Below are positions 6,312 through 39,323 of a stretch of 50,729 bases of DNA, piece after piece. Source of the DNA: Tolypothrix carrinoi HA7290-LM1 (GTDB lineage Bacteria; Cyanobacteriota; Cyanobacteriia; Cyanobacteriales; Nostocaceae); the NCBI GenBank assembly GCA_019358935.1, contig JAHHIK010000060.1, forward strand, positions 1 to 50,729. The letters are read 5' to 3'. Numbering within the stretch: the first letter of the stretch is position 1; each line of letters opens with the position of its first letter. Made by a program: the position numbers and the translations under genes. The notes under the pieces are model-generated. The model did no database searches. It worked only from the letters and a program-made list of their open reading frames with translations, and was not told the origin of the DNA.

Positions 6312-6773
6312 TTAACTATTAGAAAATAAAACGGGAGTATCAAGAATCTTAAACTGAATTAAGAGGATAATCACTAGAGTAAAGACTGTTGAAGAAACTA
6401 GACCAGTGAATAACTCTTTTTTCAGGTTACGTTCTTTGGGTTCGTTTTGAAAAACATCTACAGACCCTAATTGCATTAAAATAATTCCGACAACGTTAGA
6501 TAGCCAGTAGCCGATAATTGAACAAGGTATAAGTAACTTTGGGGAAAATAAACTACACATATACCCAAAACCATAAGCAATTGGCAGATTGAATAATAAA
6601 TCATTCCACCAACATAATGGCGATAGTAAATATCCAAGCACTAGAAAGAATCCACCTCTAAGTTTTTTCCACATGTCTGGTTGGATGACGACCTGATTCG
6701 CGGTTTGTGATGATTCGTCAGAGGTGGTTTGTCCGCTTACGCTCAATTGAGTGACTTCTTGGATGCTTGTCAT
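6312..6773 (-). CDS. Hypothetical membrane protein (about 3 TM helices; LSPLCWWND motif)
   Basis: 153 aa ORF with hydrophobic segments; operator-like box 11 bp upstream of ATG. Confidence 0.8.
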   Translation of the reverse strand: MTSIQEVTQLSVSGQTTSDESSQTANQVVIQPDMWKKLRGGFFLVLGYLLSPLCWWNDLLFNLPIAYGFGYMCSLFSPKLLIPCSIIGYWLSNVVGIILMQLGSVDVFQNEPKERNLKKELFTGLVSSTVFTLVIILLIQFKILDTPVLFSNS

Positions 6774-6783
6774 GTTCTTACAT

Positions 6784-6808
6784 AAATCCTATCGGCTTAC
6801 CGTAGTTT
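6784..6808 (-). promoter_or_regulatory. Putative sulfur-regulon operator box AAACTACGGTAAGCCGATAGGATTT
   Basis: 17-bp core CTATCGGCTTACCGTAG is identical to the copy upstream of cysE (17424-17440). Confidence 0.75.
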
Positions 6809-7143
6809 ATATAAAAACGCAGAAAAAGTCTACTCTACCAATAGAAAGATATCTATGCAGTTGACTGCGATGTCGGGACGACAACGCTCCGCGAACGCCA
6901 CCTTCAAAGGAATTCATCGTATTGGAAAAAGTAAAAATAGCGATCGCTTGTTATCAGTTGCCTGATATCTCCGTATTGTATGTATAATTGGTTGCATATA
7001 TTTTCCAAAGAGAATATGTTGTGCGATCGCCTCATGTCTGCTTACCCAAAATATTCCAACATCGAAACATTTAAAATCATTTTTCTACCTTTCCCCTTTT
7101 GAAAAATCCCTTTTCCCCTCCTTTGGTAATAGTTATAATAAAA

Positions 7144-7437
7144 ATGATGAATCAACTTAATAATATGACTAATTCTTCTTTAACTACTTTCTTTTTGATA
7201 TTGGGAATAGTTTTCTTGACAATTTCTGTTATTGGACAATCAAAATTGTTTTTTGCGGAAATTAATCCAGGTTGTTTTGGTCGATTTTTAGCTTTAATTA
7301 TCGGTGTATTCAGCTTAATCTGTGCTGTTTTCATAGGAGTATTTCCCCTAGAAAGTGTTGATTTAGTCAAAAATTATTTAGCGCAGCAGCTTCAACAAAA
7401 TATAAGCTCGATTAACCAACTTTTACTTGGGTCATAA
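7144..7437 (+). CDS. Small two-TM hypothetical membrane protein (start uncertain: 7144 or 7165)
   Basis: Two hydrophobic helices around EINPGCFGR. Confidence 0.65.
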   Translation: MMNQLNNMTNSSLTTFFLILGIVFLTISVIGQSKLFFAEINPGCFGRFLALIIGVFSLICAVFIGVFPLESVDLVKNYLAQQLQQNISSINQLLLGS

Positions 7438-7439
7438 CA

Positions 7440-7657
7440 CAATACAGTTCAGTTAGTAGTGTTCAGTCATCGAAGATCCCCCCAACCCACGCCACTTTGC
7501 TCAAGTCGAGCCAGCCGCTTGCGGGGGTTCCCCCCGTTGTGCGGACTGGCGTGGGAAACCCTTCCTGTGCAAGTGGCTCCCCTTATCAAGGTTGGCTCTA
7601 GTTCCCTCCTTTTTAAGGAGGGTTAGGGAGGATCAAGTCTTAACACCAAGCGTATTG
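7440..7657. mobile_element. MITE (Nezha/IS4-like) with 10-bp target duplication and nested dispersed repeats
   Basis: Imperfect TIRs CAATACAGTTCAGTTA ... TAACACCAAGCGTATTG; flanks GGTCATAACA (7430-7439) and GGTCATAACC (7658-7667). Confidence 0.75.
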
Positions 7658-7754
7658 GGTCATAACCAAGCCAATGTGAAATAATAATATATTAATTGGG
7701 GTGCAGTTACCAAAACGCAACGCACCCCTTAACTGAAGACTTATATAATTAGTA

Positions 7755-8291
7755 TTAGTAATAAGCACCTATCAAGTTGTAAGTCAAAGCCGTTAATACA
7801 AACAAATTCACAAAAATGTAAATTAAATCACGCCGGCGAACAAAAGCCAAAAGGGAAATTATCACCCGAACTATGGGAGTAGCAATTAAAAGCAGCAGTC
7901 CAAGTTGAATTATCCCACGGCTGCTACCTGAAAAAACAGCTTCTACCACACCTGTAGGAGAGCGAAATTTAGATGGGGTTCCGCGAAAAAAGTGATATTC
8001 AGCAGGTTCAGCACCGTGGCGAATTAAATACAAAATCCCCCCCAGCAGAACTACAGCACTAGCAATGAGAACGCCATATTTGAGAAGATTGCTAAGTAGA
8101 TTTTCTAATTGCTGCTCACTTGATGTTTTCGTGATGCTATTACTATCAATATCACCAGTTATTTTGTTAGCGCGTTCTGTTAACTCTTGAATATCAGAAT
8201 CTGGTTCTGACTGCAAAGGTAGTGCAACTAGTTCAACTTTTGACTGTACCGATGATTTCCACTCCCAAGCCGACGAATTGAATTTATACAT
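7755..8291 (-). CDS. DUF1634-family membrane protein (TauE partner)
   Basis: LLKYGVLIASAVVLLGG and GLLLLIATPIVRV motifs; immediately downstream of a TauE gene. Confidence 0.85.
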   Translation of the reverse strand: MYKFNSSAWEWKSSVQSKVELVALPLQSEPDSDIQELTERANKITGDIDSNSITKTSSEQQLENLLSNLLKYGVLIASAVVLLGGILYLIRHGAEPAEYHFFRGTPSKFRSPTGVVEAVFSGSSRGIIQLGLLLLIATPIVRVIISLLAFVRRRDLIYIFVNLFVLTALTYNLIGAYY

Positions 8292-8292
8292 T

Positions 8293-9129
8293 TTACAGCC
8301 CCCCTAATAGACTGTTGTAGACCATCTTCAAAGCCATTACCACCAGCACAAGGCTGAAGATAATTCGCAAAATCTGCGTTTTAGCACCTACTAGAACTCT
8401 TGCACCCAAAAAAGCACCAGGAAGTACCCCTAACATCACCGGCATTGACAATCCTGGATCGATGTAACCCCGTGCTAGGTAAACCCCTGCTGATGCAGCT
8501 GCTGTCACACCGATCATAAAATTGCTGGTAGTGGTGGAAACTTTGAAGGGTAGACGCATAGCTTGATCCATCGCTAATACTTTGAATCCTCCCGAACCAA
8601 TGCCAAGTAAACCAGAAAGCACTCCAGCTACTAACATCACGCTAAACCCAGCCGACACAGATTGAACTTGATAAGACATCAATCCATCAGGAGTTGGGTA
8701 AGTACCATTGAGATTCAGATAGTTTGCCAGAAAGTCGCTTGACTCAGTTTCGAGATTTTCTGGTCTAGGTTGTTGTGAAAGGTATGCGGAATAAATTAAA
8801 ACGATCGCTAACACAATTGTCAGCGCTTTGATAGAAATAAAACTAGCAATTAAAGCACCAACTATCGCGCCAATTGTTGTTGCCACCTCCAGAAACATTC
8901 CCAAGCGTAAATTAGTGTAACCTTTTTTTATATAAGTACATGCTGCACCGGAAGAAGTCGCAATTACAGATACCAGTGAAGCACCAACGGCGTAGCGGAT
9001 ATCAACGCCAAACATTGAAGTTAATAAAGGAACAATTACTACTCCACCCCCTAACCCAGTCAGCGCACCGAGAAAACCAGCGCTAAATGACCCAATCCAA
9101 ACTAGTAAAGAAAATTCTAGGATATTCAA
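8293..9129 (-). CDS. Sulfite exporter TauE/SafE family protein (copy 1)
   Basis: GALTGLGGGVVIVP, ASLVSVIATSSG, SGLLGIGSG, STTTSNFMIGVTAA; TTG start. Confidence 0.9.
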   Translation of the reverse strand: MNILEFSLLVWIGSFSAGFLGALTGLGGGVVIVPLLTSMFGVDIRYAVGASLVSVIATSSGAACTYIKKGYTNLRLGMFLEVATTIGAIVGALIASFISIKALTIVLAIVLIYSAYLSQQPRPENLETESSDFLANYLNLNGTYPTPDGLMSYQVQSVSAGFSVMLVAGVLSGLLGIGSGGFKVLAMDQAMRLPFKVSTTTSNFMIGVTAAASAGVYLARGYIDPGLSMPVMLGVLPGAFLGARVLVGAKTQILRIIFSLVLVVMALKMVYNSLLGGL

Positions 9130-9293: not shown

Positions 9294-9947
9294 TCACAAA
9301 GAAAGTGAAATTTCCCCATTAAATAGGTTTAATAGAGTCAAGGTGCCACTATCTACTACTATAAAAGCACCTAACCCGATTAGCACAAAAGGCATAAACT
9401 TATTGCCGTAGCCAGTTAGAACAAGAGCGATCGCTTTGTTGTGGGTTAATTTATATGCTGCATAACACAACACTCCTACCAACAGAAAAAATACGCATAG
9501 AATTATCAGCAGACTTTCCCAAGTACTGCTAGCAAACAAAGGCAAATAGATACTAATGTTGTCAGTACCATTAGCAACCGTGACGGCTGCCACACTGTAA
9601 ACTTGCATTCTTGTTAACTTGGCAAGAAACGAGTTGTTATGCGCTGTTTCTCCCTCGTTTTCTTTTGATGCATCTTCAAAATTGAGCAAGCATTTGATAC
9701 CGATTAGTATTGGCAGTAAGCCAAATAGTCCAATCAAAGGACGCGGTACAATTAAACCGCCAAAGAAACCGGGAATACTGAGGATTATTAGCGTTGCAAA
9801 GCCTATATACTGACCTGCAACGATATGCCAACGACAAAACGTAGCATTCACTTGTGAAAAAAACAGCGTCAGGAGAACCATATCATCGATATTGGTGGCA
9901 CTGAAGGCTGTTATCCCTGTGAAGAGTGCAGTAACTAACTCGCTCAT
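9294..9947 (-). CDS. CadD-family (LysE superfamily) membrane transporter, paralog 1
   Basis: FSATNIDD, GQYIGF, ANGTDNISIYLPLF; start at MSELV chosen by analogy with paralogs. Confidence 0.88.
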   Translation of the reverse strand: MSELVTALFTGITAFSATNIDDMVLLTLFFSQVNATFCRWHIVAGQYIGFATLIILSIPGFFGGLIVPRPLIGLFGLLPILIGIKCLLNFEDASKENEGETAHNNSFLAKLTRMQVYSVAAVTVANGTDNISIYLPLFASSTWESLLIILCVFFLLVGVLCYAAYKLTHNKAIALVLTGYGNKFMPFVLIGLGAFIVVDSGTLTLLNLFNGEISLSL

Positions 9948-10037: not shown

Positions 10038-10694
10038 TTACATTCCCAAACCAGGCACAAGTTGGTACGTTCCACTTTTAACTAGGATGGAGAGTCCCAA
10101 GTAGATTAATACAAACGGAAAGACTTTCCGACCGTAGCGAGCTACAACCGGAGCTGCCAGACGATTACGAGTCATGTGGTAAGACAGAAAGCACCACAGC
10201 CCAATAGTCAAATAGCAAACACACACAATTAGACCCAAACTAGGGAGATTGCTACTGGCAAACAACGGTACGTAAATTCCTATGTTGTTTGCTCCATTTG
10301 CAATGGTGACAGCGGAAACGCGGTAAGTTTGGCGATCGCGTATAGTTGCCCATAGTGATTGATTGCGACGCTGAGGTTCATCATCAGAGTTGAAAACTGA
10401 CACAGTTTGTGATCCCTCTTCTTCTCGACTCATTAAATTACTGATACCAATCGCGATCGGAAGGAAACCTAACAATCCAATCCAAGCATCTGGAACAATT
10501 AAACCCCCGAAGAAACCAGGAAGACTAGCAAAAACTAATGCAGTGAATCCCAGAAATTCACCGATAACAATATGCTTGGGACGAAAGGTACGATTGACTT
10601 TTCCGAAAAAGGCAGTCAAGTATAAATTGTCGTCAAAGGTGGTTGCAAAAGCCGCAGAAATCCCAATAAATAAAGTACTAATTAGCCAAGTCAT
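10038..10694 (-). CDS. CadD-family membrane transporter, paralog 2 (divergent motifs)
   Basis: FATTFDD, GEFLGF, ANGANNIGIYVPLF. Confidence 0.88.
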   Translation of the reverse strand: MTWLISTLFIGISAAFATTFDDNLYLTAFFGKVNRTFRPKHIVIGEFLGFTALVFASLPGFFGGLIVPDAWIGLLGFLPIAIGISNLMSREEEGSQTVSVFNSDDEPQRRNQSLWATIRDRQTYRVSAVTIANGANNIGIYVPLFASSNLPSLGLIVCVCYLTIGLWCFLSYHMTRNRLAAPVVARYGRKVFPFVLIYLGLSILVKSGTYQLVPGLGM

Positions 10695-10724: not shown

Positions 10725-10865
10725 CTAATTTTTCTCTGCTTCTCGATGTGAGGATCGTTCAGAAGCGGTGCGACTGGCAAACTGGGTCATGTTGATACTG
10801 ACAAAAAATAGCCCAATTAAACCAACCAGAAAACTTAGCCAGATGCCGTTGACAAATATAGGCAA
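10725..10865 (-). CDS. Possible 46-aa single-TM small protein in the CadD leader (not in ORF track)
   Basis: TTG-started frame (M)PIFVNGIWLSFLVGLIGLFFVSINMTQFASRTASERSSHREAEKN; no clear RBS. Confidence 0.25.
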   Translation of the reverse strand: MPIFVNGIWLSFLVGLIGLFFVSINMTQFASRTASERSSHREAEKN

Positions 10866-11314
10866 CGATTAAGCCGATGTTTGATGTTGTTTGTCGTGGG
10901 TGTAATAACAGCGAAAGATTGAACTACGACTTCTGGTAAATATTGGCAATGCGGCTTTAAGCCGTGTGTACTCGGTAGATGCAATTTGATTTTCCTATTC
11001 CAAAATTTGTAATGAGGAATGACGCATGTATTGATTGGCTTCGATGCATTCATAGATAGATCCAAGGCAGAATCTTCCTTTTGTTCAATTTCTGACTTTT
11101 ACTTTCAGTTATTAGAAATCTATCTACTGAATTTGTCTTATCGTTATTTCTATTTCTCAAGACAGATTAATCCTACACGATGTTTTTTTCATAATCAAGT
11201 ATTAGTAAAAAAAATATTTTAATTTTTCCTGATAATAGTTGATTACCCCGAAGCACATCGGAATAGTGCCTATTAAATTTAGTCAACCTTAAATAATTAT
11301 TAATATCAAAATTT

Positions 11315-11605: not shown

Positions 11606-12268
11606 ATGATGAAAAATTTCAAATACATTTTGATGGTGGCGCTATTGCTAGCAAATCTGATGTTTGCTCCACCTTCATTAGCAGATGCGCCAAGTTTTAC
11701 CAAAAATCCTGACTACATCGCACTAACTAAAGAGATTAATAAGTTGCAGACTCTTAAAGAAACACATGCGGCTGTAGAAGGTTTCACAACTGAGGAAATT
11801 GATAAGAAACTCAATGAATTAGAGTTTCAAAAATATGCTTTTGAGTCAGGCATTAACTGGGGACAATGTCGTAACGAGACAGGAAAAACTTTAGCTGTCT
11901 ACGGACCAGATCCAAATCTGGACGATGACGATGATGAATACTCCTTGGGTGCTTCACTGTATTTTTTGGCTGATGGTAAGACAACAAAAGATAAATGGGA
12001 TTGCAAAGGAGTTTTTCTCCCCAGCGATATCAAAGCTGTTGCCCTCACTCCTGGTGGACAAAATCAAGACTTGACTGGTGGTGTTGTCATCAAGGTTCCT
12101 GTTGGAACTAACTTAGTATTGAAGACAAATGCAGATACCGGGGCAATTGAATTCAATCAAGCTGGTATTCAAGTCTTGAAACCAGGTGAAGTCAACTGGT
12201 TTATCCCGAATGTGTCGCAAGCGATTGTAGATGCACGAGTAACCAACGCACCTACTAATAAGGGTTGA
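11606..12268 (+). CDS. Secreted protein of unknown function, paralog A
   Basis: Sec signal peptide (PPSLA-D); shared motifs with 36968-37801. Confidence 0.88.
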   Translation: MMKNFKYILMVALLLANLMFAPPSLADAPSFTKNPDYIALTKEINKLQTLKETHAAVEGFTTEEIDKKLNELEFQKYAFESGINWGQCRNETGKTLAVYGPDPNLDDDDDEYSLGASLYFLADGKTTKDKWDCKGVFLPSDIKAVALTPGGQNQDLTGGVVIKVPVGTNLVLKTNADTGAIEFNQAGIQVLKPGEVNWFIPNVSQAIVDARVTNAPTNKG

Positions 12269-12451: not shown

Positions 12452-13213
12452 CTATAACTGTGTTTCTTCCGGAAGTAATGAGGTTTCCTCTACTGGTGGT
12501 TCATTTACATCGCTTGCTTTAGTCAAATGCGGTTTGATAATCAGATTTACCCCAATTGCCCAGGCTAATGCAACCATCCATCCTGCAAGAATATCACTAG
12601 GAAAGTGAACGCCAAGGTAAAGTCGCGTCCAGCCGATCGCAACGACGAATAAACTACCGAAAATCAAAACTAACCAACGCGAGTAGCTATTCCAAGCCAA
12701 AACTACCAAAACTGCTATCAGCGTCATACTTGTCATTGCATGACCGCTAGGAAAGGCATAACTGAGTTCATGAGCGCTTGACTCCCACAAGTCAGGACGC
12801 ACTCTATGCATGAATTCCTTAGCTGTGCGGTTGATGAACGCGCTTCCCAATGTGGTGATGAGTACATAAGCTAGCGATCGCCAACGCTTCAACAACAATA
12901 ACACGAGTGCGATCGTACTAAAAATCGGTATTGCAGTCCAAAATGACCCAAACTTAGTTAGTGACAGTGCAAAAATATCTAACTGAGGCTGTGCTGTTTT
13001 GTGAATTGCTATCAATATCGGCACATCCCACGGAAACCCACCTTCATGTTGCCATACTTCTAAGGCAAGTAATCCAAAGATTTGCAAAGGTAAATAAACC
13101 CCGATAAATAAAATTAGTAATTCACGCCAGCGAGCAATCAACAGTTTTTTGATAAAGCTCAAAGGCGATTTTTGTTGTTGGCGATCGCTTTTGACGTTTT
13201 CTAATTTTTCCAT
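12452..13213 (-). CDS. PAP2-family membrane phosphatase
   Basis: KxxxxRxRP, FPSGH, TRLYLGVHFPSD catalytic motifs. Confidence 0.92.
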   Translation of the reverse strand: MEKLENVKSDRQQQKSPLSFIKKLLIARWRELLILFIGVYLPLQIFGLLALEVWQHEGGFPWDVPILIAIHKTAQPQLDIFALSLTKFGSFWTAIPIFSTIALVLLLLKRWRSLAYVLITTLGSAFINRTAKEFMHRVRPDLWESSAHELSYAFPSGHAMTSMTLIAVLVVLAWNSYSRWLVLIFGSLFVVAIGWTRLYLGVHFPSDILAGWMVALAWAIGVNLIIKPHLTKASDVNEPPVEETSLLPEETQL

Positions 13214-13483: not shown

Positions 13484-13508
13484 AAAATACGGTAAGTCAC
13501 TCGGATTT
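13484..13508 (+). promoter_or_regulatory. Putative sulfur-regulon operator box AAAATACGGTAAGTCACTCGGATTT
   Basis: Matches TACGGTAA-n-nTnGGATTT pattern; lies between divergent PAP2 and TauE genes. Confidence 0.6.
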
Positions 13509-13773
13509 TAGTATTTTACATGTAAAATGCTAGAAAAAGAAGGAAGCAGTTAAGTTTAGCAGGAGAAGCGTCCCATCGGCAGTTACGACCTGCCCAAAGA
13601 AGGGAAAAGTGCGATCGCCCTGAAAAAACTCACTCTAACGGCTTTTTTGGTCAGGATCTTAAATCCTCAAAGCCTTCGCTAAATAACCTTTGTGTTTCTC
13701 ATCCAATTAGAAACACGAAAATTTGTGCTGTCTGCATTACCACAGTTGAAAACCCCCCATTTTGGATAGGAGT

Positions 13774-14571
13774 ATGAACTATTTATTACTACCACTGTTA
13801 AGCTTCTTTGTTGGCATCATCGTTGGTTTGACAGGAATTGGCGGAGCATCTCTCATCACCCCAATGTTGATTTTTATATTCCAAGTTCCGCCTTCGGTGG
13901 CTGTTAGTTCTGATGTCGTGGCTGCCACACTAATGAAGATTGTTGGCAGTGTCAAGCACTATCAACAGAAAACCCTTGACATGCAAGTTGTCCAATGGCT
14001 GGCATTCGGAAGTGTCCCAGGATCGCTCTTTGGGGTGGGGATTTTGCACCTAATTAAGCGTAATGGTGGATCTAGTCTGGATTATATTCTGCTGCGCTTG
14101 GTTGGGGTGATGATTCTGTTAGTTACAGTCTTAGCACTTGTACAATTGCTACTTTTTACTTTTTTCCCCAAGTTTACGCTACCCGAACTGCCAAAGTTTG
14201 ACTTAAAAACTAATTTGGGTCGTTTGATGACGATGACAATAGGAGCAGTTTTAGGCTGTTTGGTCGGTTTAAGTAGTGTTTCTTCCGGTTCAATGTTTGC
14301 ACTAGTATTGATTGGCTTTTTCCGCCTTGATGCTCGTAAATTGGTAGGTACAGACATTTCACAAGCCGCAATTTTATTATTTTTTACCTCCCTCGGACAC
14401 CTCAGCTTGGGAACAGTTAATTGGAGTCTGGTAGTACCGATTTGGATAGGCTCAGTTCCAGGGGTATTACTAGGTGCTAAAATCTGTCAAATCGCGCCTC
14501 AACGCCCACTGCGGTTTATCATTTATACAATATTGATGATGGTTAGTTGGAAGTTAGTTTATCAAGCGTAA
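13774..14571 (+). CDS. Sulfite exporter TauE/SafE family protein (copy 2)
   Basis: VGLTGIGGASLITP, AVSSD, GLSSVSSGS, LVGTD; AGGAG RBS before ATG 13774. Confidence 0.9.
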   Translation: MNYLLLPLLSFFVGIIVGLTGIGGASLITPMLIFIFQVPPSVAVSSDVVAATLMKIVGSVKHYQQKTLDMQVVQWLAFGSVPGSLFGVGILHLIKRNGGSSLDYILLRLVGVMILLVTVLALVQLLLFTFFPKFTLPELPKFDLKTNLGRLMTMTIGAVLGCLVGLSSVSSGSMFALVLIGFFRLDARKLVGTDISQAAILLFFTSLGHLSLGTVNWSLVVPIWIGSVPGVLLGAKICQIAPQRPLRFIIYTILMMVSWKLVYQA

Positions 14572-14918: not shown

Positions 14919-15581
14919 TTAAGCTTTTACCCACGGTAATAAATTGAATGTACCTCTTTCATACATGATGAAAAGTCCCAAGCAAATTAAGACATAAGGA
15001 ACAAGAATGTTACCGTAGCGAGTTAAAATATCAGCAATAGTAGGTTGAAGGGTTAATAGGTAAGCAATAAAGCACCAAACCCCTACCATGACAAAAAATA
15101 CACTCAAAATTACTCCCAGACTGGCAAAACTATGACCGGCGAATAAGGGAATATAAATACTGATATTATCACCACCATTGGCAATCGTTACTGCGGCTAC
15201 TTTATATGTATTCGGATGCAAAAGACTCAATATAAAAGATATTATGGGGTTTCTGTGTGGGGACTGCTTAAAATCACTGGTTACTGTCTGAACTTCTGTT
15301 GTTTCTTCTTCCGGACTTAGCAGTTGCTTAAGACCAATTACTATTGGTAGTATTCCGAGTAATCCAATTAATTCTCGCCGCACTACCAAGCCACCGAAAA
15401 ATCCTGGTAAGCTAGCGATGATGATGGCTGTAAAACCAAGGTACTGACCAAAAAAGATATGTCGGCGACGAAAGTTAGCATTTATCTGTGAAAAAAATAG
15501 CAGCAGGATTATGATGTCATCGATATTAGTAAAGAAGAAGGCGATTATTCCTTCTATGAAAGCTGTCCCAAGCTTATTCAT
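14919..15581 (-). CDS. CadD-family membrane transporter, paralog 3
   Basis: FFFTNIDD, GQYLGF, ANGGDNISIYIPLF. Confidence 0.9.
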   Translation of the reverse strand: MNKLGTAFIEGIIAFFFTNIDDIIILLLFFSQINANFRRRHIFFGQYLGFTAIIIASLPGFFGGLVVRRELIGLLGILPIVIGLKQLLSPEEETTEVQTVTSDFKQSPHRNPIISFILSLLHPNTYKVAAVTIANGGDNISIYIPLFAGHSFASLGVILSVFFVMVGVWCFIAYLLTLQPTIADILTRYGNILVPYVLICLGLFIMYERGTFNLLPWVKA

Positions 15582-17315: not shown

Positions 17316-17339
17316 ATACTACGGTTTTTCGATAGATTT
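17316..17339 (+). promoter_or_regulatory. Putative operator box ATACTACGGTTTTTCGATAGATTT abutting the rrf2 start
   Basis: CTACGGT-N5-GATAGATTT. Confidence 0.7.
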
Positions 17340-17419
17340 GAGGTATATAGCAGCGATCTTAATTTTTCTCAAACTAACGGATGTGATAGCATCCCAATTA
17401 TCACTAACTGAAATACCTC

Positions 17420-29212: not shown

Positions 29213-29307
29213 AAAGTAGCTTCAAATTGCAAATTTAATTGACGTGTTTGGGCTAAAGGGGAAACGTGGGTACGCAAAAAATCACTCTTGACTCTTTCTT
29301 AAGTTTT

Positions 29308-29335
29308 GTACAGACGCAATTAGTAGCGTCTGTAC
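29308..29335. terminator. Stem-loop between sbpA and cysT (attenuating/stabilising hairpin or REP)
   Basis: GTACAGACGC-AATTAGTA-GCGTCTGTAC perfect 10-bp stem. Confidence 0.55.
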
Positions 29336-29349
29336 TGACTTTTGATTAA

Positions 29350-30510
29350 TTACCGTTTCCTTTGGGCTTGAATATTGTCAAAAAGAGCACCATCTGCAAA
29401 GAACTTCTTATCGGCTGCATTCCAACCGCCCAACTCGTCAATTGTACCTAGAGTTTTCACCTTGGTATACTTGTCGGCGATTTCTTTGAGTTCTTTATTT
29501 TGTGCTACCGCTTCATCTAGGGGTCGGAATCCCAATTTGGCAAACTCTTGCTGTGCTTCTGGAGTATAGAGGTATTTGACAAAACCTTCTGCTACTTGCC
29601 TTGTGCCGTGCTTATCGACGTTTTTATCTACAACTGCGATCGGATTGTCGATAGAGATATTTACCTCAGGAACGACATAATTCACCTTCTCGCCTTTTTG
29701 TTGTGCCAAGACAATTTCGTTTTCGTAGTTAATTAAGGCATCTCCCTGACCTTGCTTGGCAAATGTATCAGTTGCTTCACGGGCATCCTTAGTCAAGATT
29801 GGCACATTGCTATATACTTTGGTCACAAACTGAGTCGCTTTAGCCTCATCTCCCCCAGTTTTAATCACTGAATTCCACAGTGCCAAGAAATTCCACTTGG
29901 CAATACCCGATGTTTTGGGGTCAGCAGTAATCAGTTTTACATCGTTTTTCGCTAAATCTTCCCAAGTCTTGATGCCTTTGGGGTTGCCCTCTCGTGTAAC
30001 TAATGCGGCAACAGTTTTAGAGACAATGCCATTGTTGGGGAATTCTTTTTCCCATCCAGGCTGAATTAGTCCAGCCTTCTCAATTTTTTGAGTGTCTCCT
30101 GCTAATGCCAAGTGGACGACATCCGCTTCTAAACCGTCGATAACAGCGCGAGTTTGCGAACCAGATCCGCCATAGCTTTGTTTGAAGGTGACGTTTTGGT
30201 TATGGTCTTTTTTCCACTGTTCGACAAATTTAGGAATAATTGCTTCGTGAACCGCTTTGGTGACTGCAAAGGAAACGAGGGTTAGTTCAACGTCTTTGTT
30301 GTTAGCTGCAACAGTACTAGCACCAGAATTTCCTGCATTGCTATTGGCATTATCGGCATTTCCACCAGAACAGGAGGCGATCGCTACACTCAATATCGCT
30401 CCCACCAAAAACATCGATACAAAGCCTTTGAAGGAACGCAACCTGAGTCTGCGGCTCAAATGCTCAATGGTCAGTCCCGATTGCTTAACTCGGCGTTGCC
30501 ATAAACTCAT
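29350..30510 (-). CDS. sbpA: Periplasmic sulfate-binding lipoprotein
   Basis: Lipobox IASC, QSYGGSGSQTRAVIDGLEADVV, DPKTSG, NYENE. Confidence 0.95.
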   Translation of the reverse strand: MSLWQRRVKQSGLTIEHLSRRLRLRSFKGFVSMFLVGAILSVAIASCSGGNADNANSNAGNSGASTVAANNKDVELTLVSFAVTKAVHEAIIPKFVEQWKKDHNQNVTFKQSYGGSGSQTRAVIDGLEADVVHLALAGDTQKIEKAGLIQPGWEKEFPNNGIVSKTVAALVTREGNPKGIKTWEDLAKNDVKLITADPKTSGIAKWNFLALWNSVIKTGGDEAKATQFVTKVYSNVPILTKDAREATDTFAKQGQGDALINYENEIVLAQQKGEKVNYVVPEVNISIDNPIAVVDKNVDKHGTRQVAEGFVKYLYTPEAQQEFAKLGFRPLDEAVAQNKELKEIADKYTKVKTLGTIDELGGWNAADKKFFADGALFDNIQAQRKR

Positions 30511-32170: not shown

Positions 32171-32893
32171 TCAAGAACAGCTCCCCCTTGTCCCCCTTGT
32201 CCCCCTTGTCCCCCTTGTCCCCCTTGTCCCCCATCTCCCCCTCTCCCCAATGCCCACTTGACGGGATGCTACCATGTAGCGGAATATATATTCCACCAAT
32301 TCTATGTAGTTACGAGCTGTTTCGGGGGAAGATGCCCAGACTGTAACACCGTGGTCGCGGATGAGCAAGGCTGACACCTGCGGCAAAGTAACACTGAAGC
32401 GCTCTTTAATCTGGGCCGCAATCTGGAAAACTTCTAAATGGTTAGCGAATATGGGAATAACACAACGAGGATTTTCTTCCCGCACTCCTAGCCCTTTCAA
32501 CATCTCCAAGGGTGGCAAAATTAGGGTATCTCCCTGCACAAAGCGAGAAACTAAATTCGCCTCAATTGAGTGGACATGATAACAAGCTTGTGCTTCTGGA
32601 AATAGAGTATAAAGAATTTGATGAATGGCTGTTTCCGCCGAAGGCTTCAAATCAGGTGATGATTGCGCTACTTTGCCATCTGGATAAATGCGAACGAAAT
32701 CACTATCGGATAATTTGCCTTTAGAGCGACCGCTAGCGGTAATCCAGAAACTACCATCAGGTAAGCGAATCGAGAGATTTCCCGCAGTTCCCATCATCCA
32801 ACCCTGGTGGTAAAAGTTATGGGCTGTAGCAATTAACTCACGACGGGGATCTAAATCTTGAGCGTGAGTAGATAGTGATTGATATTCAATCAT
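32171..32893 (-). CDS. mtnB: Methylthioribulose-1-phosphate dehydratase (repeat-derived GTR tail)
   Basis: GWMMGTAGNLS, ITASG, PSAETAIH, HVHS, LEMLKG, HGVTVW. Confidence 0.92.
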   Translation of the reverse strand: MIEYQSLSTHAQDLDPRRELIATAHNFYHQGWMMGTAGNLSIRLPDGSFWITASGRSKGKLSDSDFVRIYPDGKVAQSSPDLKPSAETAIHQILYTLFPEAQACYHVHSIEANLVSRFVQGDTLILPPLEMLKGLGVREENPRCVIPIFANHLEVFQIAAQIKERFSVTLPQVSALLIRDHGVTVWASSPETARNYIELVEYIFRYMVASRQVGIGERGRWGTRGTRGTRGTRGTRGSCS

Positions 32894-33527
32894 GCGATCG
32901 CTCCCATAATCTAGCTAATTGGTCACGCACCTCAAAGAAGTCATTCCAGGGAATGTAAGGTTTTTGGGATTCATCGAGATATTGTGCTAAACGAAGCTGT
33001 GCAAATACCACAGAAGCCTCAATTGCCATATTTAAGTCAGTAATCGAATCCCCGATCGCTATCTTCTCATCAGCCGGATACTCGGACATCACCTGCACTT
33101 TCGCAATTAGTTCTGTATCCCCCTCGTAGTCACTACTTACCGCCAAGTACTCACCACTGGTATCCACATCCACAGCATAAAGTGCATGAACCCGTTGCAC
33201 CAACCCACCCAAAACAACTTCCACCATTCCCCGCAGTCCCCCAGAAACCACCACCAAAGGTACTTTTTCCACCTCTAGGAAATCTAGCAGTTCTATAAAT
33301 CCCGGACGTATCGCCTGAGGTCGAGTAAATTCCAAAATTTCCGCATAGCTTGAAGATGGAATTGATTCGAGTATTTGCCTGACTCCCTCTGGCAAAGTCA
33401 ACTTTCGTGCGTACATTTGGGGAATTAACTGAGCAGAAAGCGTCGGTGCAAAATGTTTCAGAACCGTAACAAACGTTTCCTCAGTCGTAATAGTGCCATC
33501 AAAATCGCAAAAAACTATTTTTTTCAT
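32886..33527 (-). CDS. mtnX: HAD-IB phosphatase, MtnX-like
   Basis: FCDFDGTIT, VVSGG, IGDSITD; between mtnD and mtnB; start MKKIVF at 33527. Confidence 0.8.
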   Translation of the reverse strand: MKKIVFCDFDGTITTEETFVTVLKHFAPTLSAQLIPQMYARKLTLPEGVRQILESIPSSSYAEILEFTRPQAIRPGFIELLDFLEVEKVPLVVVSGGLRGMVEVVLGGLVQRVHALYAVDVDTSGEYLAVSSDYEGDTELIAKVQVMSEYPADEKIAIGDSITDLNMAIEASVVFAQLRLAQYLDESQKPYIPWNDFFEVRDQLARLWERSHD

Positions 33528-33540
33528 TAATTCAAAATAG

Positions 33541-34092
33541 CTAGGCAACAGCCTGTCGAGTGCGAATCTTTTTATTAGTGTACTCAGGAACCCAACCTTC
33601 TGTCCCAATGAAATAACGCACCGCTTTAATTCGCCGTGCTGGGGTCAGATAAAACCAGTGTTCAGTTCCTGCTGGCACGTTAATATATTCTTCTGGCTGC
33701 ACTGTGAGTTCTACTTGGCTGCCATCTGGACGCACAAAACCAAAAATCGCTTCTCCATCAATGATGAAGCGCACTTCGTCTTTGCTATGAATGTGGATTT
33801 GGTCAAACTTTACCAGCAGCGCATCAAGGTTGGCAACCCCCGGATGGAAAACAATTAAATCGCGAGATTGATAGCTTGCTGTTTGTTTAAGTTGCTCAAA
33901 ATAGCCATCCAGGGCTTTTAGTACCTGTTGTTTTTCATTTTCGTTGAGGCTATCTTGTGCCAGCAAACGATGTAACTGCGGATTATCTTCTATCTCCCAC
34001 CGATTAAGTTGAATATTGAGGGATGCCAGTTCTTGGGCAATATCCTTCAGATTCGTCAGGACTGTCTTATCTTCTAGTTGTAGAATTGCCAT
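33541..34092 (-). CDS. mtnD: Acireductone dioxygenase
   Basis: Cupin HIHSKDEVRF, VPAGTEHWF, AVRYF...GWVP. Confidence 0.92.
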   Translation of the reverse strand: MAILQLEDKTVLTNLKDIAQELASLNIQLNRWEIEDNPQLHRLLAQDSLNENEKQQVLKALDGYFEQLKQTASYQSRDLIVFHPGVANLDALLVKFDQIHIHSKDEVRFIIDGEAIFGFVRPDGSQVELTVQPEEYINVPAGTEHWFYLTPARRIKAVRYFIGTEGWVPEYTNKKIRTRQAVA

Positions 34093-34361: not shown

Positions 34362-35315
34362 TCAAACTTTTAAAGTCTCAACATTAATTAACATTTCTTC
34401 AAAGGCGATAGAAAGCCGACTTTGAAAACGCTGACGATGTTTTAACTTTAAAAAAGGGCGGGTTATTTCCGCAGGAATTAACGAACCATTTCTGTTATCA
34501 ATGATTGTAAGCGATCGCAAAGTTGACAGACACAGTTCTTTTTGCACCATCAAATCAGAAATTGCTGTGGCACCTACACCGTTTTCAACTACAGCCTTGA
34601 CCATTTCACCACTGTTCAACACCGAAATGACATTTAATTGCGATAAATCGATCCCCCAATTTAGCAAAGCTTGGTCAAATCTTTGCTGTGTACCAGAACC
34701 AGACTCGCGCATTACCCATCCAGTTTGAGTTAGTTCTGTTAAGCGAACCTCTCCTAATTCAAACCAGGGGTGAGATTTACCAACCACAATTAGCAAGCGA
34801 TCGCTCGCAACAACTTCTTCCTCTAAAGAAGCCTTCAACGATGCTTGCACTTCTCCTTCCACCAAACCCAAATCAAACACACCCGTTGCTGTTCCTGCAC
34901 AAATCGTTTCTGCATTAGCGAGAGTGCAGTTGACAGCGATCCCCGGATATCTGCGCTGAAAAGAGCTAATCTTTTCTGGCAACCAATAATTACCAATCGT
35001 CAGACTTGCTCCCAAATTCAACTTACCACGTTGCAGATCGTTTAATTCCCGTAAATTTCTTTCAGTCAGAGTAACTTGCTTTAATATTTCCTGTGCTTCC
35101 ATTTGTAGCAATTTCCCTGCCTCTGTGATCTCGATGTGCCGACCAATTCGATGGAAAAGCTTGACTGCATATTCTTCCTCCAAGCTTTGAATTGCCGCAC
35201 TCACAGCAGGCTGAGTAATGTAAAGCGCTTCCGCAGCACGGGTAAAGTGGAGATTTTCCGCAACCGCTACAAAAACTCGCAATTGGTCAAGCGTCATTCC
35301 CGCCATTTTATGCAT
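34362..35315 (-). CDS. LysR-family regulator, CysL/YeiE-like
   Basis: HFTRAAEALYITQPAVS HTH; GASLTIGNYWLP, DLGLVEG, WVMRESGSGT. Confidence 0.9.
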   Translation of the reverse strand: MHKMAGMTLDQLRVFVAVAENLHFTRAAEALYITQPAVSAAIQSLEEEYAVKLFHRIGRHIEITEAGKLLQMEAQEILKQVTLTERNLRELNDLQRGKLNLGASLTIGNYWLPEKISSFQRRYPGIAVNCTLANAETICAGTATGVFDLGLVEGEVQASLKASLEEEVVASDRLLIVVGKSHPWFELGEVRLTELTQTGWVMRESGSGTQQRFDQALLNWGIDLSQLNVISVLNSGEMVKAVVENGVGATAISDLMVQKELCLSTLRSLTIIDNRNGSLIPAEITRPFLKLKHRQRFQSRLSIAFEEMLINVETLKV

Positions 35316-36044
35316 CCCTAAAACTTAGTGTTTGATAAAAACTTTTCAGTTAAATCTTGATCCCACAATTTTTTCAGAAAAGAGAAACAAAGACTCATTT
35401 CCTAGTAGGGTTTGGGGGTATCTGCAATAACTAAATTTATTCAACCAGATGTACTAATTATCGATTTTTAATCACTTTTATTTATTGTTTGGAAAATAAA
35501 TAACATTTGCTTTCATCATATAGGTCGCTTAGAGTAAGTATCAAGCTAGATGCATCAGTACTAGAGCTTCTTGTGATGCTTACCAAAATTAAGTTTCGCA
35601 TAGGGAAGAAACTTCAATTGCTTGAGGCATAGCAAGCTATGCTTTAAGTCGAGTCAAGAAGCCCAGACAGACGCGATCGCGCTTGTGGCTGTTGTTCTTA
35701 GTTGGCAATTACAGGAGATTGTGTATGAGTGTTGAAATTTAAATGAGTGCAAAAAATGTCTTGACTACCGAAAGATTATAGCTCAATTCATAGCCGTTAT
35801 CGCACCGACAACAAAGCCCGCCGCTAATTTCGGCTAATTTATTATTGGTATTATCGGTAACAATATGCTTTTTTGGTCTTTGGTATTTTACTTATTCTTG
35901 TTGTAACTGATTTTTCATCCAAAGATGAAGCGGAAAATTGAAGCAACTCACTTTAGTTTCAGTGATGCCGAAAATCTTTAGTAGTTACGCAACTAACTAC
36001 TATCCACGCTCCTACTAACCAATCCTTATAAGGAATGAATGTAA

Positions 36045-36740
36045 ATGAATCAATTAGTAACAGCAATTCCCACTGGTTTAGCCGCGTTCACTGCAACCAA
36101 CATTGATGACCTTGTTATCCTCACGCTGTTTTTCTCACAAGTCAATAAAACATTTCGTAGTCGGCACATCTATATTGGTCAATATCTCGGTTTCACAGCA
36201 TTAGTTCTTGCTAGTATGACTGGGTTTTTTGGTGGTTTAGTAGTGCCATCAAACTGGATTGGACTACTTGGATTGATGCCAATTGCTACTGGTTTAAGTC
36301 GCTTGCTGAATAAAGAAAGTGATTGTGTTGAATCAGAAACAGTTGTGGCGGAAAAAAGTGCTATAGCTACTTTTATTTCTCCTCAAACTTACAGCGTAGC
36401 TGCCGTTACAGTCGCTAATGGAAGTGACAATATCGGCATCTATATGCCTTTATTTGCCAACAGTACTTGGGAAAGCCTTTTAATAATTATCGGCATCTTC
36501 TTTTCGCTGGTAGGAGTTTGGTGTTACGCTGCTTACACATTAACCAGGCTTCCAGCTATTAATCAAGTCATTACTCCTCACAGCAGTACAGTTGTTCCCT
36601 TTGTTTTAATTGCATTAGGTGCTTATATTGTCTGGGAAAGCGGTGCTTCAATTCTCATCACTTTAGTTGCAAGCTGCTTATATTTAACCTGGCTAATTAT
36701 GGCAAAAAATTATGGACAATCTCCGGAAATGGAGAATTAA
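36045..36740 (+). CDS. CadD-family membrane transporter, paralog 5
   Basis: FTATNIDD, GQYLGF, ANGSDNIGIYMPLF. Confidence 0.9.
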   Translation: MNQLVTAIPTGLAAFTATNIDDLVILTLFFSQVNKTFRSRHIYIGQYLGFTALVLASMTGFFGGLVVPSNWIGLLGLMPIATGLSRLLNKESDCVESETVVAEKSAIATFISPQTYSVAAVTVANGSDNIGIYMPLFANSTWESLLIIIGIFFSLVGVWCYAAYTLTRLPAINQVITPHSSTVVPFVLIALGAYIVWESGASILITLVASCLYLTWLIMAKNYGQSPEMEN

Positions 36741-36967
36741 AGGTAAAAGCGAAGTATTCAAAGCAAGATGGTGGAAAAATTTATGAAGAATACTTCGCAT
36801 TGTAAAAATTATAAAATATTTCCAAAGATATTAGAAATATAATTAATAATAAATAAGCTGACTAGTGCAGAAAGTAAAAAAATCAGCAAGTATTTTAGAT
36901 TTGACAACAAAGATAAATAAGAGTTGTCAATTGTACTACAGGGTAAAATCGAAAAGGAGAAAACAAC

Positions 36968-37801
36968 GTGAAATTTAAACCTTTTTTAATCGCTTTGGTA
37001 ATTCTGGTAAATCTAGTGTTTGTCCAACCTTCATTCGCTGATAAACCTAAATTCACCAAAAATCCTGACTACATAGAGGTGACAAAAGCTCTTGAAAGTC
37101 TAAAGACCGCACAAAGTATACAAGCTCAAGGTGAAAACACTAATCCTCAAGAAATTCAAAAGAAAATTGATGAATTAGAGTTTCAAAAATATGCTTTAGA
37201 AACCGGAACCAGCTGGGGACAGTGTGCAAACCAAACAGACAAAACGCTTGCCGTCTATGGACCACAACCAGATGAAGATGACGTAGGAGAAGATTATCCA
37301 TACGATACTGCACTTTACTTTTTAGCACCTGGTCGGACAACTAAAGAGAAATGGGATTGTAATGGAGTTTATCTACCAAATGATGCCAAACTAACAGCTA
37401 TAAGCTCTAACCAACAAGGTGAAGAATTAGCTGGACCTGGTGCGATCAAAATAGTTGATGGAACTCAGTTAGTCGCGAAGACAAATCCTGATACTTCTGC
37501 TGTTGAGTTGAATATTCCTGCTACTCAAGTTTTTAAAGCAGGTGATCTGAATTGGTTTATCCCTAATGTTTCGCAAGCAATTATAGATACACGAGTTGCA
37601 AACGCGCCTACTGCTAAGATAACTAAGAAAAATCTAGTGGTTGTGCAGAAGAATCTAGAAAAAGACACAGTGCAGAAGAATCTAGAGAAAGAGACTGTAG
37701 AACCCGAAATTCCTACTAAGACTGAGCCACAGGTGCAGCCTCTACGTCGGTACGACGAGCCACGTTTACCAAAGGAAGGCTATTACTACAAAAGACCCTG
37801 A
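36968..37801 (+). CDS. Secreted protein of unknown function, paralog B (C-terminal extension)
   Basis: AGGAG RBS, GTG start, signal peptide QPSFA-D; FTKNPDYI, ELEFQKYA, WGQC, LAVYGP, WDC, NWFIPNVSQA shared with 11606-12268. Confidence 0.88.
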   Translation: MKFKPFLIALVILVNLVFVQPSFADKPKFTKNPDYIEVTKALESLKTAQSIQAQGENTNPQEIQKKIDELEFQKYALETGTSWGQCANQTDKTLAVYGPQPDEDDVGEDYPYDTALYFLAPGRTTKEKWDCNGVYLPNDAKLTAISSNQQGEELAGPGAIKIVDGTQLVAKTNPDTSAVELNIPATQVFKAGDLNWFIPNVSQAIIDTRVANAPTAKITKKNLVVVQKNLEKDTVQKNLEKETVEPEIPTKTEPQVQPLRRYDEPRLPKEGYYYKRP

Positions 37802-37892
37802 ACGGTTAGCACTGCTCAATAAATAAAAGTCGCGGCTAAAAAAACGCGCATCCGCGATTAGGCAAAAAGAGCGAAAAATTCTGAATATCGCC

Positions 37893-37940
37893 AAAGCCAG
37901 AATCTGGGAACAAATAAAACTCAGAATCTGGCTTTTTTTG
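37893..37940 (+). terminator. Possible intrinsic terminator
   Basis: AAAGCCAGA...TCTGGCTTTTTTT stem with U-tract. Confidence 0.5.
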
Positions 37941-38050
37941 TAACAGAAGAGACATTGTGACTAAAACTAAAGATGAAATTGTTACTGAAGGTACTTGGAT
38001 TTCAGGCACATTTTATTTATAAATATAAAATTAGAGTTAGGGTGTTACTC

Positions 38051-38473
38051 ATGCGATCGCTATTCAAACCCAAAAATGTAGATATAGAAAAGGCAAAGTT
38101 AAGAAATCCCTCACGAGTGCGGGATCATTTGGCAAATGAGCGCACTTACTTAGCATGGATGCGGAGTGCGATCGCTCTCATGGGTTTTGGTGTTGTTATC
38201 GTCCGTCTTCGCCACTTCCAACCACCACTTATACCACATCCAGGGGCGGGGTGGAAGTTGGGTTTAATTTTCTCTTTGGTTGGTTTATTAACTGTCTTAC
38301 TCTCAACTCAGCACTATTTCGCCGTTCGCGATAACATCGATGAAGATACCTATGAACCCCCAGATCGCTGGGTAATTCTTTTCAGCCTCTCTATGCTTAT
38401 TTTGGGTGCTGGGGTAATCTATTTTGTCTTCTCTATCCCCCTCGATCCAATGAGTCCTGTGATACCTGAGTGA
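38051..38473 (+). CDS. DUF202/YidH-family membrane protein
   Basis: RDHLANERTYLAWMRSAIALMGFG signature; start uncertain (37973 alternative). Confidence 0.9.
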   Translation: MRSLFKPKNVDIEKAKLRNPSRVRDHLANERTYLAWMRSAIALMGFGVVIVRLRHFQPPLIPHPGAGWKLGLIFSLVGLLTVLLSTQHYFAVRDNIDEDTYEPPDRWVILFSLSMLILGAGVIYFVFSIPLDPMSPVIPE

Positions 38474-38582
38474 TTGCAGCAACTTACCACCATAGCGGGT
38501 TTCAATTAGCTGCAATACATAAAAGAATAAAAGAACCGCAGATAAACACCAACTTTCACGTTCACCCGTTTCTTTTATTTAA

Positions 38583-39323
38583 ATGCTTATTTTCTCTCTC
38601 GCAATAGTCAGCTTTTTTGCTTGGTTGGTTAGCACCCTAGCTGGTGGTGGTAGTCCTTTCATGCTGATACCTCTAGTTAACTCAATCCAAGGTGCCGCAT
38701 CGGTTCCGCCGGTTATTACTATCGGCATGTTTTTCGGAAATGCACATCGCATCGTACTTTTTTGGCGATATATTGACTGGAAATTGACATTATGGTATGC
38801 TCCAGGCGGTATTCTTGGAGCGATGCTCGGTGCGTATACTTTTACCCAAATTCATATAGATTGGTTGCAGTTACTCATCGGCGTTTTTTTGGTAGTTAGC
38901 ATTTTTGGCTTTGGATTAGAACAAAAAGAAACTACATTTAAAGTCAAAGCTTGGTATATTTTACCTGCCGGCTTCGTCAAAGCTTTTGTCTCTGGATTAA
39001 TTGGAACTACAGGTCCAGTATTGAACGCTTTTTATTTAAATTATGGTCTAGTTAAAGAAGAGTTGATTGCTACTAAAGCAACTCATGTAGTAATTATTCA
39101 CTTAGTTAAAATATTGACTTATGCTGCATTTGGAGTATTATCACCGCAGATTATTGCTACTGGTTTAATCATTGGTCTAGTAGCCATACCAGCTAACTTT
39201 CTCGGTAAGTATATTCTCAATAAGATAAATGCTCAACAGTTTCGCTCGATAGTACTCGCAACAATGGCTATCAGCGGTGTATGGATGCTGTGGGGACAAC
39301 GAGATTTACTCGTTTTTTGGTAA
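38583..39323 (+). CDS. Sulfite exporter TauE/SafE family protein (copy 3)
   Basis: STLAGGGSP, SGLIGTTGPVLN, IATKA; about 8 TM helices. Confidence 0.88.
   Translation: MLIFSLAIVSFFAWLVSTLAGGGSPFMLIPLVNSIQGAASVPPVITIGMFFGNAHRIVLFWRYIDWKLTLWYAPGGILGAMLGAYTFTQIHIDWLQLLIGVFLVVSIFGFGLEQKETTFKVKAWYILPAGFVKAFVSGLIGTTGPVLNAFYLNYGLVKEELIATKATHVVIIHLVKILTYAAFGVLSPQIIATGLIIGLVAIPANFLGKYILNKINAQQFRSIVLATMAISGVWMLWGQRDLLVFW

Follow-up and report, generated by a model that had tools for sequence, protein, structure and literature searches.

CadD-like transporter genes in a cyanobacterial sulfur cluster: two upstream sites and a candidate YeiE-type LysR switch

One entire contig of the cyanobacterium Tolypothrix carrinoi HA7290-LM1 (JAHHIK010000060.1, 50,729 nucleotides; contig C60 of genome G000, referred to below as the window) was analysed, in which CadD-like genes of the Cad family lie among genes for sulfate uptake and cysteine synthesis. 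The region is read, tentatively, as a conserved cyanobacterial sulfur cluster with two upstream sites, in which a LysR regulator of the YeiE type may well switch on CadD-like, probably cation, transporters. One of the sites, the L-box, is the predicted operator of this LysR; the other, the S-box, is a palindrome of the Rrf2/CymR type that precedes rrf2 itself and genes of cysteine synthesis.

Genes labelled ‘cadmium resistance transporter’ are found next to sulfate-uptake genes in many freshwater and soil cyanobacteria, where they probably belong to a sulfur-stress response more than to ordinary defence against cadmium. The label is read as heavy-metal tolerance, whereas the present data tie the control of such genes to sulfur chemistry; sulfite sensing and survival are poorly defined in oxygenic phototrophs. 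The analysis names a regulator, gives an exact operator sequence, lists a small number of targets (DUF202, DUF1003, DUF1634, DUF7980 and a secreted orphan among them) and points to a host for which RNA-seq is public. The literature searched, which did not extend to subscription journals or to the Authorea preprint on FinR (reference 29 of PMC12880088), contained no description of this regulon. The genes named in an earlier note on this DNA are all present at their places according to checks of open reading frames (ORFs), Pfam and NCBIfam, and its statement that the window has no ArsR/CadC/CadX regulator or P-type ATPase is upheld, since queries for these families, as well as for MerR and CsoR, match nothing in the window and do match other contigs.

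The two upstream sites and their regulators

The L-box was found de novo on true upstream regions of genes encoding APC amino-acid permeases, 11 of 13 of which carry it, and was then described by a 46-bp matrix; it consists of an ATMA-N7-TKAT dyad followed by AYAA and RTTTG half-sites. In the 7.96 Mb genome the matrix has exactly 6 matches, all of 41-50 bits, and no other above 14 bits. Five of these precede Cad-36045 of the window (Cad genes are named here by position or subtype), a Cad-B gene on contig C1, a DUF1003 gene, a pentapeptide-repeat gene and an Rrf2 paralog on contig C104. In 80 loci centred on the LysR gene, a redundant set (24 titled Microcoleus) that lies outside the L-box training and of which a few may share genomes with it, the L-box is present in 72 and the reversed control in 0. 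The first gene after 86 L-boxes is APC (51), a long Cad (13), rrf2 (5), Cad-B (3), a pentapeptide gene (2) and, once each, DUF1634, the secreted orphan (sec), DUF1003 and SLC13, with none after the other 8. In two loci an SLC13 anion symporter gene stands behind an L-box or behind a Cad gene that has one, and TerC, found in 5 of the 80 loci, follows one L-box.

Relatives were sampled evenly as 120 genomes of the order. The L-box pattern, partly trained on those same genomes, occurs in 22 of them, the LysR in 22 and both in 21, and none of the nine Cad-bearing genomes that lack the LysR carries an L-box. Out of sample, in 22 untrained genomes, the L-box was found in 11 of the 17 that bear Cad and in none of the 5 that do not, with 2 matches for the reversed control; 26 of the 30 sites precede Cad, APC, DUF1003, rrf2, pentapeptide, TerC or DUF202 genes, three others precede orphans of 122 residues and one precedes no ORF. 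Judged from these sequence patterns, the window LysR very probably owns the L-box, and the genes from Cad-36045 to TauE3 would form a single operon. The L-box before the Rrf2 paralog of contig C104, together with rrf2 behind L-boxes at 5/86 and 2/30 sites elsewhere, suggests a cross-wiring of the two regulons.

The 122-residue orphans (L200:641-1009, L218:1026-1394 and L199:487-855) come from two genomes, have signal-like N-termini, are nearly identical in two cases, and are possible further members of the L-box regulon. Strong L-boxes without a clear downstream gene lie at G000 C1:4037 and G066 C45:22817, divergent from a threonine-aldolase-like pyridoxal-phosphate enzyme and TrpB, respectively, and in loci L145, L153 and L159 the LysR gene directly follows cysE, with no Cad or APC nearby.

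The best PDB matches of the LysR sensor domain are 7ERP, 7FDF, 8SBF and 8SBH; of these, 7ERP and 8SBH are of the YeiE type and 8SBH carries YeiE in its title, in keeping with the YeiE type proposed in the earlier note; the score against the NCBIfam YeiE equivalog is 178 bits, below the cut-off of 480. An excerpt of the structural work on YeiE (PMC8931317) describes a sulfite site lined by S96, S97, N126, S127, E145, R191, S195 and T197, from which Glu145 excludes sulfate. Six of these eight residues are kept in the window LysR (the equivalents of S96, N126, E145, R191, S195 and T197), with Leu in place of S97 and Ala in place of S127, and among 44 LysR orthologs S104, N134, R203 and S207 are invariant and T209 is found in 32. 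A sister LysR of genome G046, 60% identical, faces a yeiH gene (PF03601) across an untrained L-box of 35 bits. In Salmonella, YeiE activates yeiH and YeiH drives sulfite resistance, as described in part of PMC12880088. The host genome has no PF03601 gene, and the L-box gene set fills the slot held by yeiH beside YeiE.

The S-box matrix was obtained by Gibbs sampling on the regions upstream of rrf2, sbp, cysA and TauE2, and gives six matches in the window versus 0-2 in shuffled windows. They stand before orphan 6312, TauE2/PAP2, rrf2/cysE (twice), cysA/Crp and NIL2; none precedes a Cad gene of the window, and no S-box of at least 11 bits precedes the window sbp. Elsewhere in the genome, S-boxes occur before a second sbp and beside a chromate transporter gene (contig C113). 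The best specific model of the window Rrf2 is NF047409 (CymR), at 100 bits and below the cut-off of 195, and this Rrf2 would be the protein that binds the S-box.

The genome has three CymR-like Rrf2 paralogs, at 16847-17314 of the window, on contig C104 (L071:2651-3085) and on contig C3 (L076:3707-4189), the last followed by a cysK fragment; cysK is outside the window, with an intact copy on contig C1. Additionally, two strong S-boxes on contig C41 (L171:3653-4309) precede a Vat/CatB-like hexapeptide acetyltransferase gene and a pentapeptide gene, and one on contig C54 precedes a gene for a phosphonate-type binding protein.

Linkage and expression in relatives

Cad genes are found in 30 and cysT in 74 of the 120 genomes, with cysT in 30/30 Cad-bearing genomes and Cad in 0/46 cysT-less ones, a nesting that is inflated by kinship and habitat and may reflect these. 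The neighbourhood survey comprised 39 loci of at most 20 kb, spanning the 30 Cad-bearing genomes and not each Cad copy. A core cys gene lies near Cad in 22 genomes (two assignments, in G101 and G058, are weak), TauE in 17 and either of them in 24, compared with 1.9% of random windows of the host genome, so that the linkage of Cad with cys and TauE genes claimed earlier extends to relatives; lone Cad genes without sulfur neighbours occur in G015, G063, G095 and G107. The host genome has six Cad genes, five of them in the window and the sixth on contig C1, a gathering that exceeds chance.

Among the 80 LysR loci, Cad is present in 68, DUF202 in 60, the secreted orphan in 58, Band-7 in 55, APC in 53, orphan 6312 in 52, TauE2 in 47, rrf2 in 33 and cysK in 32, the last two being neighbours in many relatives. 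The common gene order is LysR and then, divergently, APC, a long Cad, Cad-C, sec and DUF202, APC being the usual lead gene of the operon. Methionine-salvage genes mtnDXB, GATase, ABM, C39/HlyD and the IS5 element were rejected as parts of the system, since they are rarely or never linked to it (mtnD in 5, mtnX in 2, GATase in 3, ABM in 1 and C39/HlyD in 0 of the 80 loci). The window LysR is 97% identical to that of Tolypothrix sp. VBCCA 56010. MgtC-family and TerC genes are inserted in some Cad operons (L156:8598-9158; L094, L101, L162, L164, L165), which fits a cation theme.

Published RNA-seq of Chlorogloeopsis fritschii 9212, in the portion of the record that was available (PMC11423583) and from which all expression values given here come, shows that in co-culture the block UYE_RS0114655-735, unlike its flanks, was raised. 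This block holds, in order, genes for Cad, a hypothetical protein, a pentapeptide protein, prohibitin, another hypothetical protein, TauE, two Cad proteins, LysR, Cad, a hypothetical protein, DUF202, cysK, Rrf2, cysA and sbp. Genes of 9212 were assigned to boxes by synteny with another strain, Chlorogloeopsis sp. ULAP02 (locus L165), whose similar order has L-boxes before Cad-E/sec, Cad-B and the pentapeptide gene and not before Cad-C or Cad-D. The genes matching the boxed set were 5-8-fold up in replicate 1, and in replicates 2-3 the increase was 22-130-fold; the corresponding values were 0.7-0.8-fold and 3-6-fold for the Cad pair without a box and 0.7-1.6-fold and 15-61-fold for sbp, cysK and cysA. 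DUF202 behaved like an S-box gene. The co-culture contained 17-22 parts per million of sulfate and its authors judged starvation unlikely; the text available makes no mention of added cadmium. These data show that the genes of the L-box set are regulated together and that their rise coincides with a cys response, and they do not identify the signal itself.

The link of Cad genes to sulfur handling that was proposed earlier is upheld in part: an L-box precedes Cad-36045 and the copy on contig C1, and their homologs rose with cys genes (PMC11423583), but the other four Cad genes of the window lack both an L-box and an S-box immediately before them, and no motif upstream of C-type Cad genes was found above shuffled levels.

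Cargo of the Cad proteins and competing readings

The mechanism considered here would run in three steps. Under cysteine shortage, the genes behind S-boxes (cysA, cysE, NIL, TauE2, PAP2 and orphan 6312) would be freed from the CymR-like Rrf2, their putative regulator, and sulfate uptake and reduction would be raised. Sulfite, be it from the sulfate flux or from outside, would then bind the LysR, which would activate the L-box promoters of APC, a gene that has decayed in this genome, of Cad-E, the secreted orphan, DUF202 and TauE3, as well as those of Cad-B, DUF1003, the pentapeptide-repeat protein and the Rrf2 paralog; the operator and the pocket residues make sulfite the likely ligand. In the third step, Cad proteins would export divalent metal ions via an Asp/Asn site and thereby protect cells at low thiol buffering and high sulfite, with TauE-type proteins exporting sulfur species. 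Sulfite oxidation is catalysed by metals, and a role of Cad in metal export under sulfite stress is somewhat favoured.

The window Cad proteins are 44-58% identical to each other and are thus old paralogs. In a quick tree and alignment, from which the subtypes, supports and residue counts of 67 cyanobacterial copies are taken, 9294, 15667 and 36045 form a long clade (support 99), 14919 belongs to a short C group and 10038 to the B subtype (support 99). The Asp residues of transmembrane helices 1 and 4 (TM1 and TM4) are both kept in four of the five window proteins; D21 is found in 67/67 copies and D128 in 61/67, with Asn in six B-type proteins. The Cad-E model (predicted local distance difference test, pLDDT, of 89) has seven helices, with D21, D22 and D128 inside them, and its predicted core has no mid-helix basic residue. 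A Rhodococcus Cad encoded in an ArsR/P-type ATPase (heavy-metal) operon has the same acidic motif, the TM1 and TM4 Asp are common to CadD and the Mn exporter MntP in an excerpted source (PMC4608589), and CadD of Streptococcus agalactiae limits accumulation of Zn, Co, Cu and Ni, as seen in part of PMC9474517. Taken together, these features suit a cationic cargo, either a metal or an amino acid, better than they suit a bare oxyanion. In Foldseek, Cad-E had no PDB match at E 0.001 (best Z 8.3, root-mean-square deviation 6.4, 194 aligned residues).

Besides the kinship behind the cysT nesting and the synteny behind the box assignments, several observations weigh against a sulfur-controlled cation transport by Cad. 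No sulfite reductase gene was seen behind the L- or S-boxes examined. The Glu145 position is Glu in 28 of 44 orthologs, Thr in 13, Ala in 2 and Ser in 1, so the ligand may differ. The LysR with its box is found at only 1 of 12 yeiH loci, and, although yeiH occurs in 0 of 21 genomes with LysR plus Cad, the mutual exclusion of yeiH and Cad was not significant (p 0.12) and was dropped. A TM4 Asp is present in the amino-acid exporter LysE as well, so the acidic site is no proof of metal cargo. In far-red co-culture, sbp, cysK and rrf2 were up and boxed Cad and sec nearly flat, which indicates that sulfur starvation alone fails to induce these and that the L-box needs its own signal; in visible-light co-culture czcA, two P-type ATPases, a CDF gene, metallothionein and carbon-uptake genes were 2-13-fold up, and one metal ATPase tracks Cad with r 0.98 over n=6 samples (PMC11423583).

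A wider proposal is more doubtful, namely that a multi-protein sulfite-response machine replaced YeiH, composed of subtype-paired CadD-like carriers, APC, DUF202, DUF1003 and the secreted orphan, with the YeiE-type sensor cross-wired to the CymR-like regulon and the CadD fold handling sulfur stress or a sulfur compound and not toxic metals.

It is unlikely that, under the same regulons, Cad exports cysteine, O-acetylserine or S-sulfocysteine and APC re-imports it, in a shuttle that would trap sulfite outside the cytoplasm, possibly via a secreted disulfide. The position of APC as first gene after 51/86 boxes, its resemblance to amino-acid carriers, the one invariant and one nearly invariant Cys of the secreted protein, and the precedent of an RhtB-family cysteine exporter would suit such a shuttle, but the APC gene has decayed twice in the host genome, which has no intact copy and has kept six Cad genes, and the acidic motif is common to metal-operon Cad. 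The superfamily speaks for both sides in the excerpt available (PMC4608589): CadD belongs with LysE, whose TM4 Asp is proposed to bind lysine, but clusters with MntP and not with LysE/RhtB.

That the Cad proteins are ordinary divalent-metal exporters under a LysR that senses metal stress, redox or carbon status instead of a sulfur oxyanion, with the proximity to cys genes due to metal stress draining cysteine or to hitch-hiking, is judged rather improbable. The streptococcal CadD, the metal-efflux genes that rose in the same co-culture and the uncoupling of L-box from S-box genes in far-red light agree with it, as does NdhR as the second-best full-length PDB match of the LysR; moreover, FinR of Pseudomonas aeruginosa has a different site and an oxidant trigger and was first described as oxidant-responsive, according to an excerpt of PMC5302815, so the signal of this family is not uniform. 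However, the LysR has retained the YeiE pocket, yeiH too is preceded by the L-box, ArsR matches in only 2/119 loci and a P-type ATPase in 0/119, and most of the metal and carbon genes peak in replicate 1 or stay flat across replicates: the maximum falls in replicate 1 for metallothionein, one P-type ATPase and cmpA, but in replicates 2-3 for Cad, as it does for sbp and cysK (PMC11423583).

Along the lines of the earlier note, the Cad paralogs might themselves carry sulfite, thiosulfate or sulfate as one multi-component module, perhaps after assembling into hetero-oligomers with TauE or the secreted protein; this is quite improbable, because the predicted Cad-E core has three Asp and no mid-helix Arg/Lys, the motif is that of the Rhodococcus metal-operon Cad, the TauE genes already give a sulfite route and the region resolves into two regulons plus cargo, even though Cad occupies the yeiH slot, long and short subtypes are neighbours as a rule, with at least 2 copies in 47/80 loci, the TM4 Asp is gone from the B subtype (6/67), which could suit another cargo, and the secreted orphan, found in 22/120 genomes, co-occurs tightly with Cad (21 of the 22). 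The complex prediction for Cad-E and sec2 scored 0.00, which is evidence neither way. The sec1 model has a pLDDT of 88; sec1 matched no family or fold, the Atlas giving only unnamed cyanobacterial clusters, and Foldseek with the whole secreted protein gave no match at E 0.001 (best Z 7.2, root-mean-square deviation 3.9, 55 residues aligned, in the hairpin only).

Features of the window and known systems

Features of the window with their positions, strands and main properties
Feature	Positions	Strand	Remarks
hpnB and squalene-hopene cyclase (hopanoid genes)	1741-5108		Left border of cluster; ordinary
Band-7/prohibitin protein	5190..5999	+	PF01145; conserved-cluster member outside the limits of the earlier note; 55/80 LysR loci
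Orphan membrane protein (DUF7980 by Atlas)	6312..6773	-	S-box target; box in 42/52 loci having the gene
S-box (Rrf2/CymR-type palindrome)	6777..6808	-	27 bits
Small orphan membrane protein	7099..7437	+	No family above cut-off; 6/80 loci
DUF1634 protein	7755..8291	-	Pairs with TauE1
TauE1 (sulfite exporter family)	8293..9129	-	PF01925
Cad-like, long clade (A)	9294..9947	-	No box directly upstream
Cad-like, B subtype	10038..10694	-	Asn in place of the TM4 Asp; shares 78% identity with boxed copy on contig C1
APC amino-acid permease pseudogene remnant	10731..10972	-	N-terminal fragments only; tblastn and hidden Markov model
Secreted orphan sec1	11606..12268	+	Signal-like N-terminus, helical hairpin, beta domain, invariant Cys88
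PAP2 phosphatase	12452..13213	-	Divergent from TauE2, S-box between
S-box	13484..13517		28.7 bits; TauE2/PAP2 gap
TauE2	13762..14571	+	S-box target
Cad-like, short C subtype	14919..15581	-	No box
Cad-like, long clade (D)	15667..16359	+	No box
Rrf2 regulator, CymR-like	16847..17314	-	Likely S-box binder (predicted)
Two S-boxes, rrf2/cysE gap	17316..17443		17.6 and 27.2 bits
cysE serine acetyltransferase	17523..18248	+	TIGR01172 above cut-off
cysA sulfate ABC ATPase	18370..19380	-	TIGR00968 above cut-off
S-box, cysA/Crp-family gap	19413..19446		23 bits
Crp-family regulator	19425..20042	+	PF13545; divergent from cysA
C39-peptidase ABC exporter and HlyD	20903-24480		Inserted within sulfur cluster; variable cargo
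Three NIL-domain ORFs (24804, 25149, 26848)	24804..27117	-	S-box at 25820-25853
cysW, cysT, sbp (sulfate ABC importer)	27454..30510	-	Above NCBIfam cut-offs
mtnB, mtnX-like, mtnD (methionine salvage)	32171..34092	-	Variable cargo
YeiE/FinR-type LysR	34362..35306	-	Predicted sulfite sensor and L-box owner
L-box (LysR operator)	35470..35515	+	Single match in window, 1 of 6 genome-wide
Second APC permease remnant	35751..35825	+	Occupies slot of intact gene in relatives
Cad-like, long clade (E)	36045..36740	+	First intact gene after L-box
Secreted orphan sec2	36968..37801	+	
DUF202 membrane protein	37973..38473	+	
TauE3	38583..39323	+	Presumed last member of the L-box operon; of the 80 loci, only the 3 closest have it
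IS5-family transposase	39453-40349		Directly after TauE3; flanked by heptamer tandem repeats
1369-residue membrane protein	43253-47362		Weak DUF2157 match only

All five Cad proteins score 86.7-112.9 bits against PF03596 (Pfam cut-off 26.2) and all three window TauE proteins 108-161 bits against PF01925 (cut-off 32.6), while sec1 and sec2 are 55% identical. Likely starts are at 9947 for Cad-9294, 19380 for cysA and 35306 for the LysR gene, and the Crp-family gene at 19425 is presumably cysR, from its position. MtnB is above its NCBIfam cut-off, MtnX is below, and MtnD was assigned by Pfam ARD; the closest named relative holds other genes in the mtn slot, and the genome has a single match to the large RuBisCO subunit, no separate RuBisCO-like MtnW partner for MtnX being found. 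The two APC remnants and the Band-7 gene were absent from the earlier note. A 65%-identical copy of the C39 ABC/HlyD genes is found on contig C65, the region 20282-20395 upstream of these genes has 21-bp and 63-bp repeats, and several intergenic gaps are filled by repeat arrays resembling the heptamers that flank IS5. No tRNA or Rfam family matched in the window, and a generic promoter scan of it was at chance level (8 found versus 12 expected).

One of the closest known arrangements is that of YeiE-YeiH in Salmonella and Cronobacter, together with the sulfite-sensing FinR/CysL systems, with which the region shares the divergent layout of LysR and target, a dyad operator beside the regulator and six of eight pocket residues; in addition, yeiH lies opposite a cyanobacterial sister LysR, with the same box between them. 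The targets differ, being APC, Cad, the secreted orphan, DUF202, DUF1003, the pentapeptide protein, TauE and the Rrf2 paralog in place of yeiH, cysJI or fprA, and the Glu145 position is non-Glu in 16/44 LysR orthologs. The region thus appears to resemble YeiE-YeiH in its working, yet yeiH is not its target and its LysR falls below the YeiE model.

The S-box side recalls the CymR regulon of Bacillus and Staphylococcus, in that CymR is the best model of the Rrf2 and palindromes stand before rrf2, cysK, cysE, cysA and sbp, but the host is a cyanobacterium, the Rrf2 is below the cut-off and TauE2, PAP2, orphan 6312 and the chromate transporter are additional targets. The cyanobacterial sulfate-uptake cluster is sbpA-cysT-cysW-cysA-cysR, and the window has the same importer, NIL genes (one lies between sbp and cysT in the Synechocystis gene table) and a Crp-family regulator; here, in contrast, this cluster is joined to a LysR/Cad module, which is present in 30/74 of the cysT-bearing genomes sampled.

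Finally, the Cad proteins are comparable to CadD of the CadD/CadX system of Staphylococcus and Streptococcus (PF03596; Transporter Classification 2.A.77); they are 36% identical to plasmid CadD along 187 residues and retain both the six core helices and the Asp of TM1 and TM4. Their scores against TIGR00779 (CadD subfamily) are 110-139 bits, below the cut-off of 181.65, Asn-Gly precedes the TM4 Asp where staphylococcal CadD has Ser-Cys-Gly, and a LysR operator takes the place of CadX/ArsR beside 2-6 old paralogs of three subtypes. By these sequence measures the window proteins belong to Pfam Cad and are not those of cadDX.

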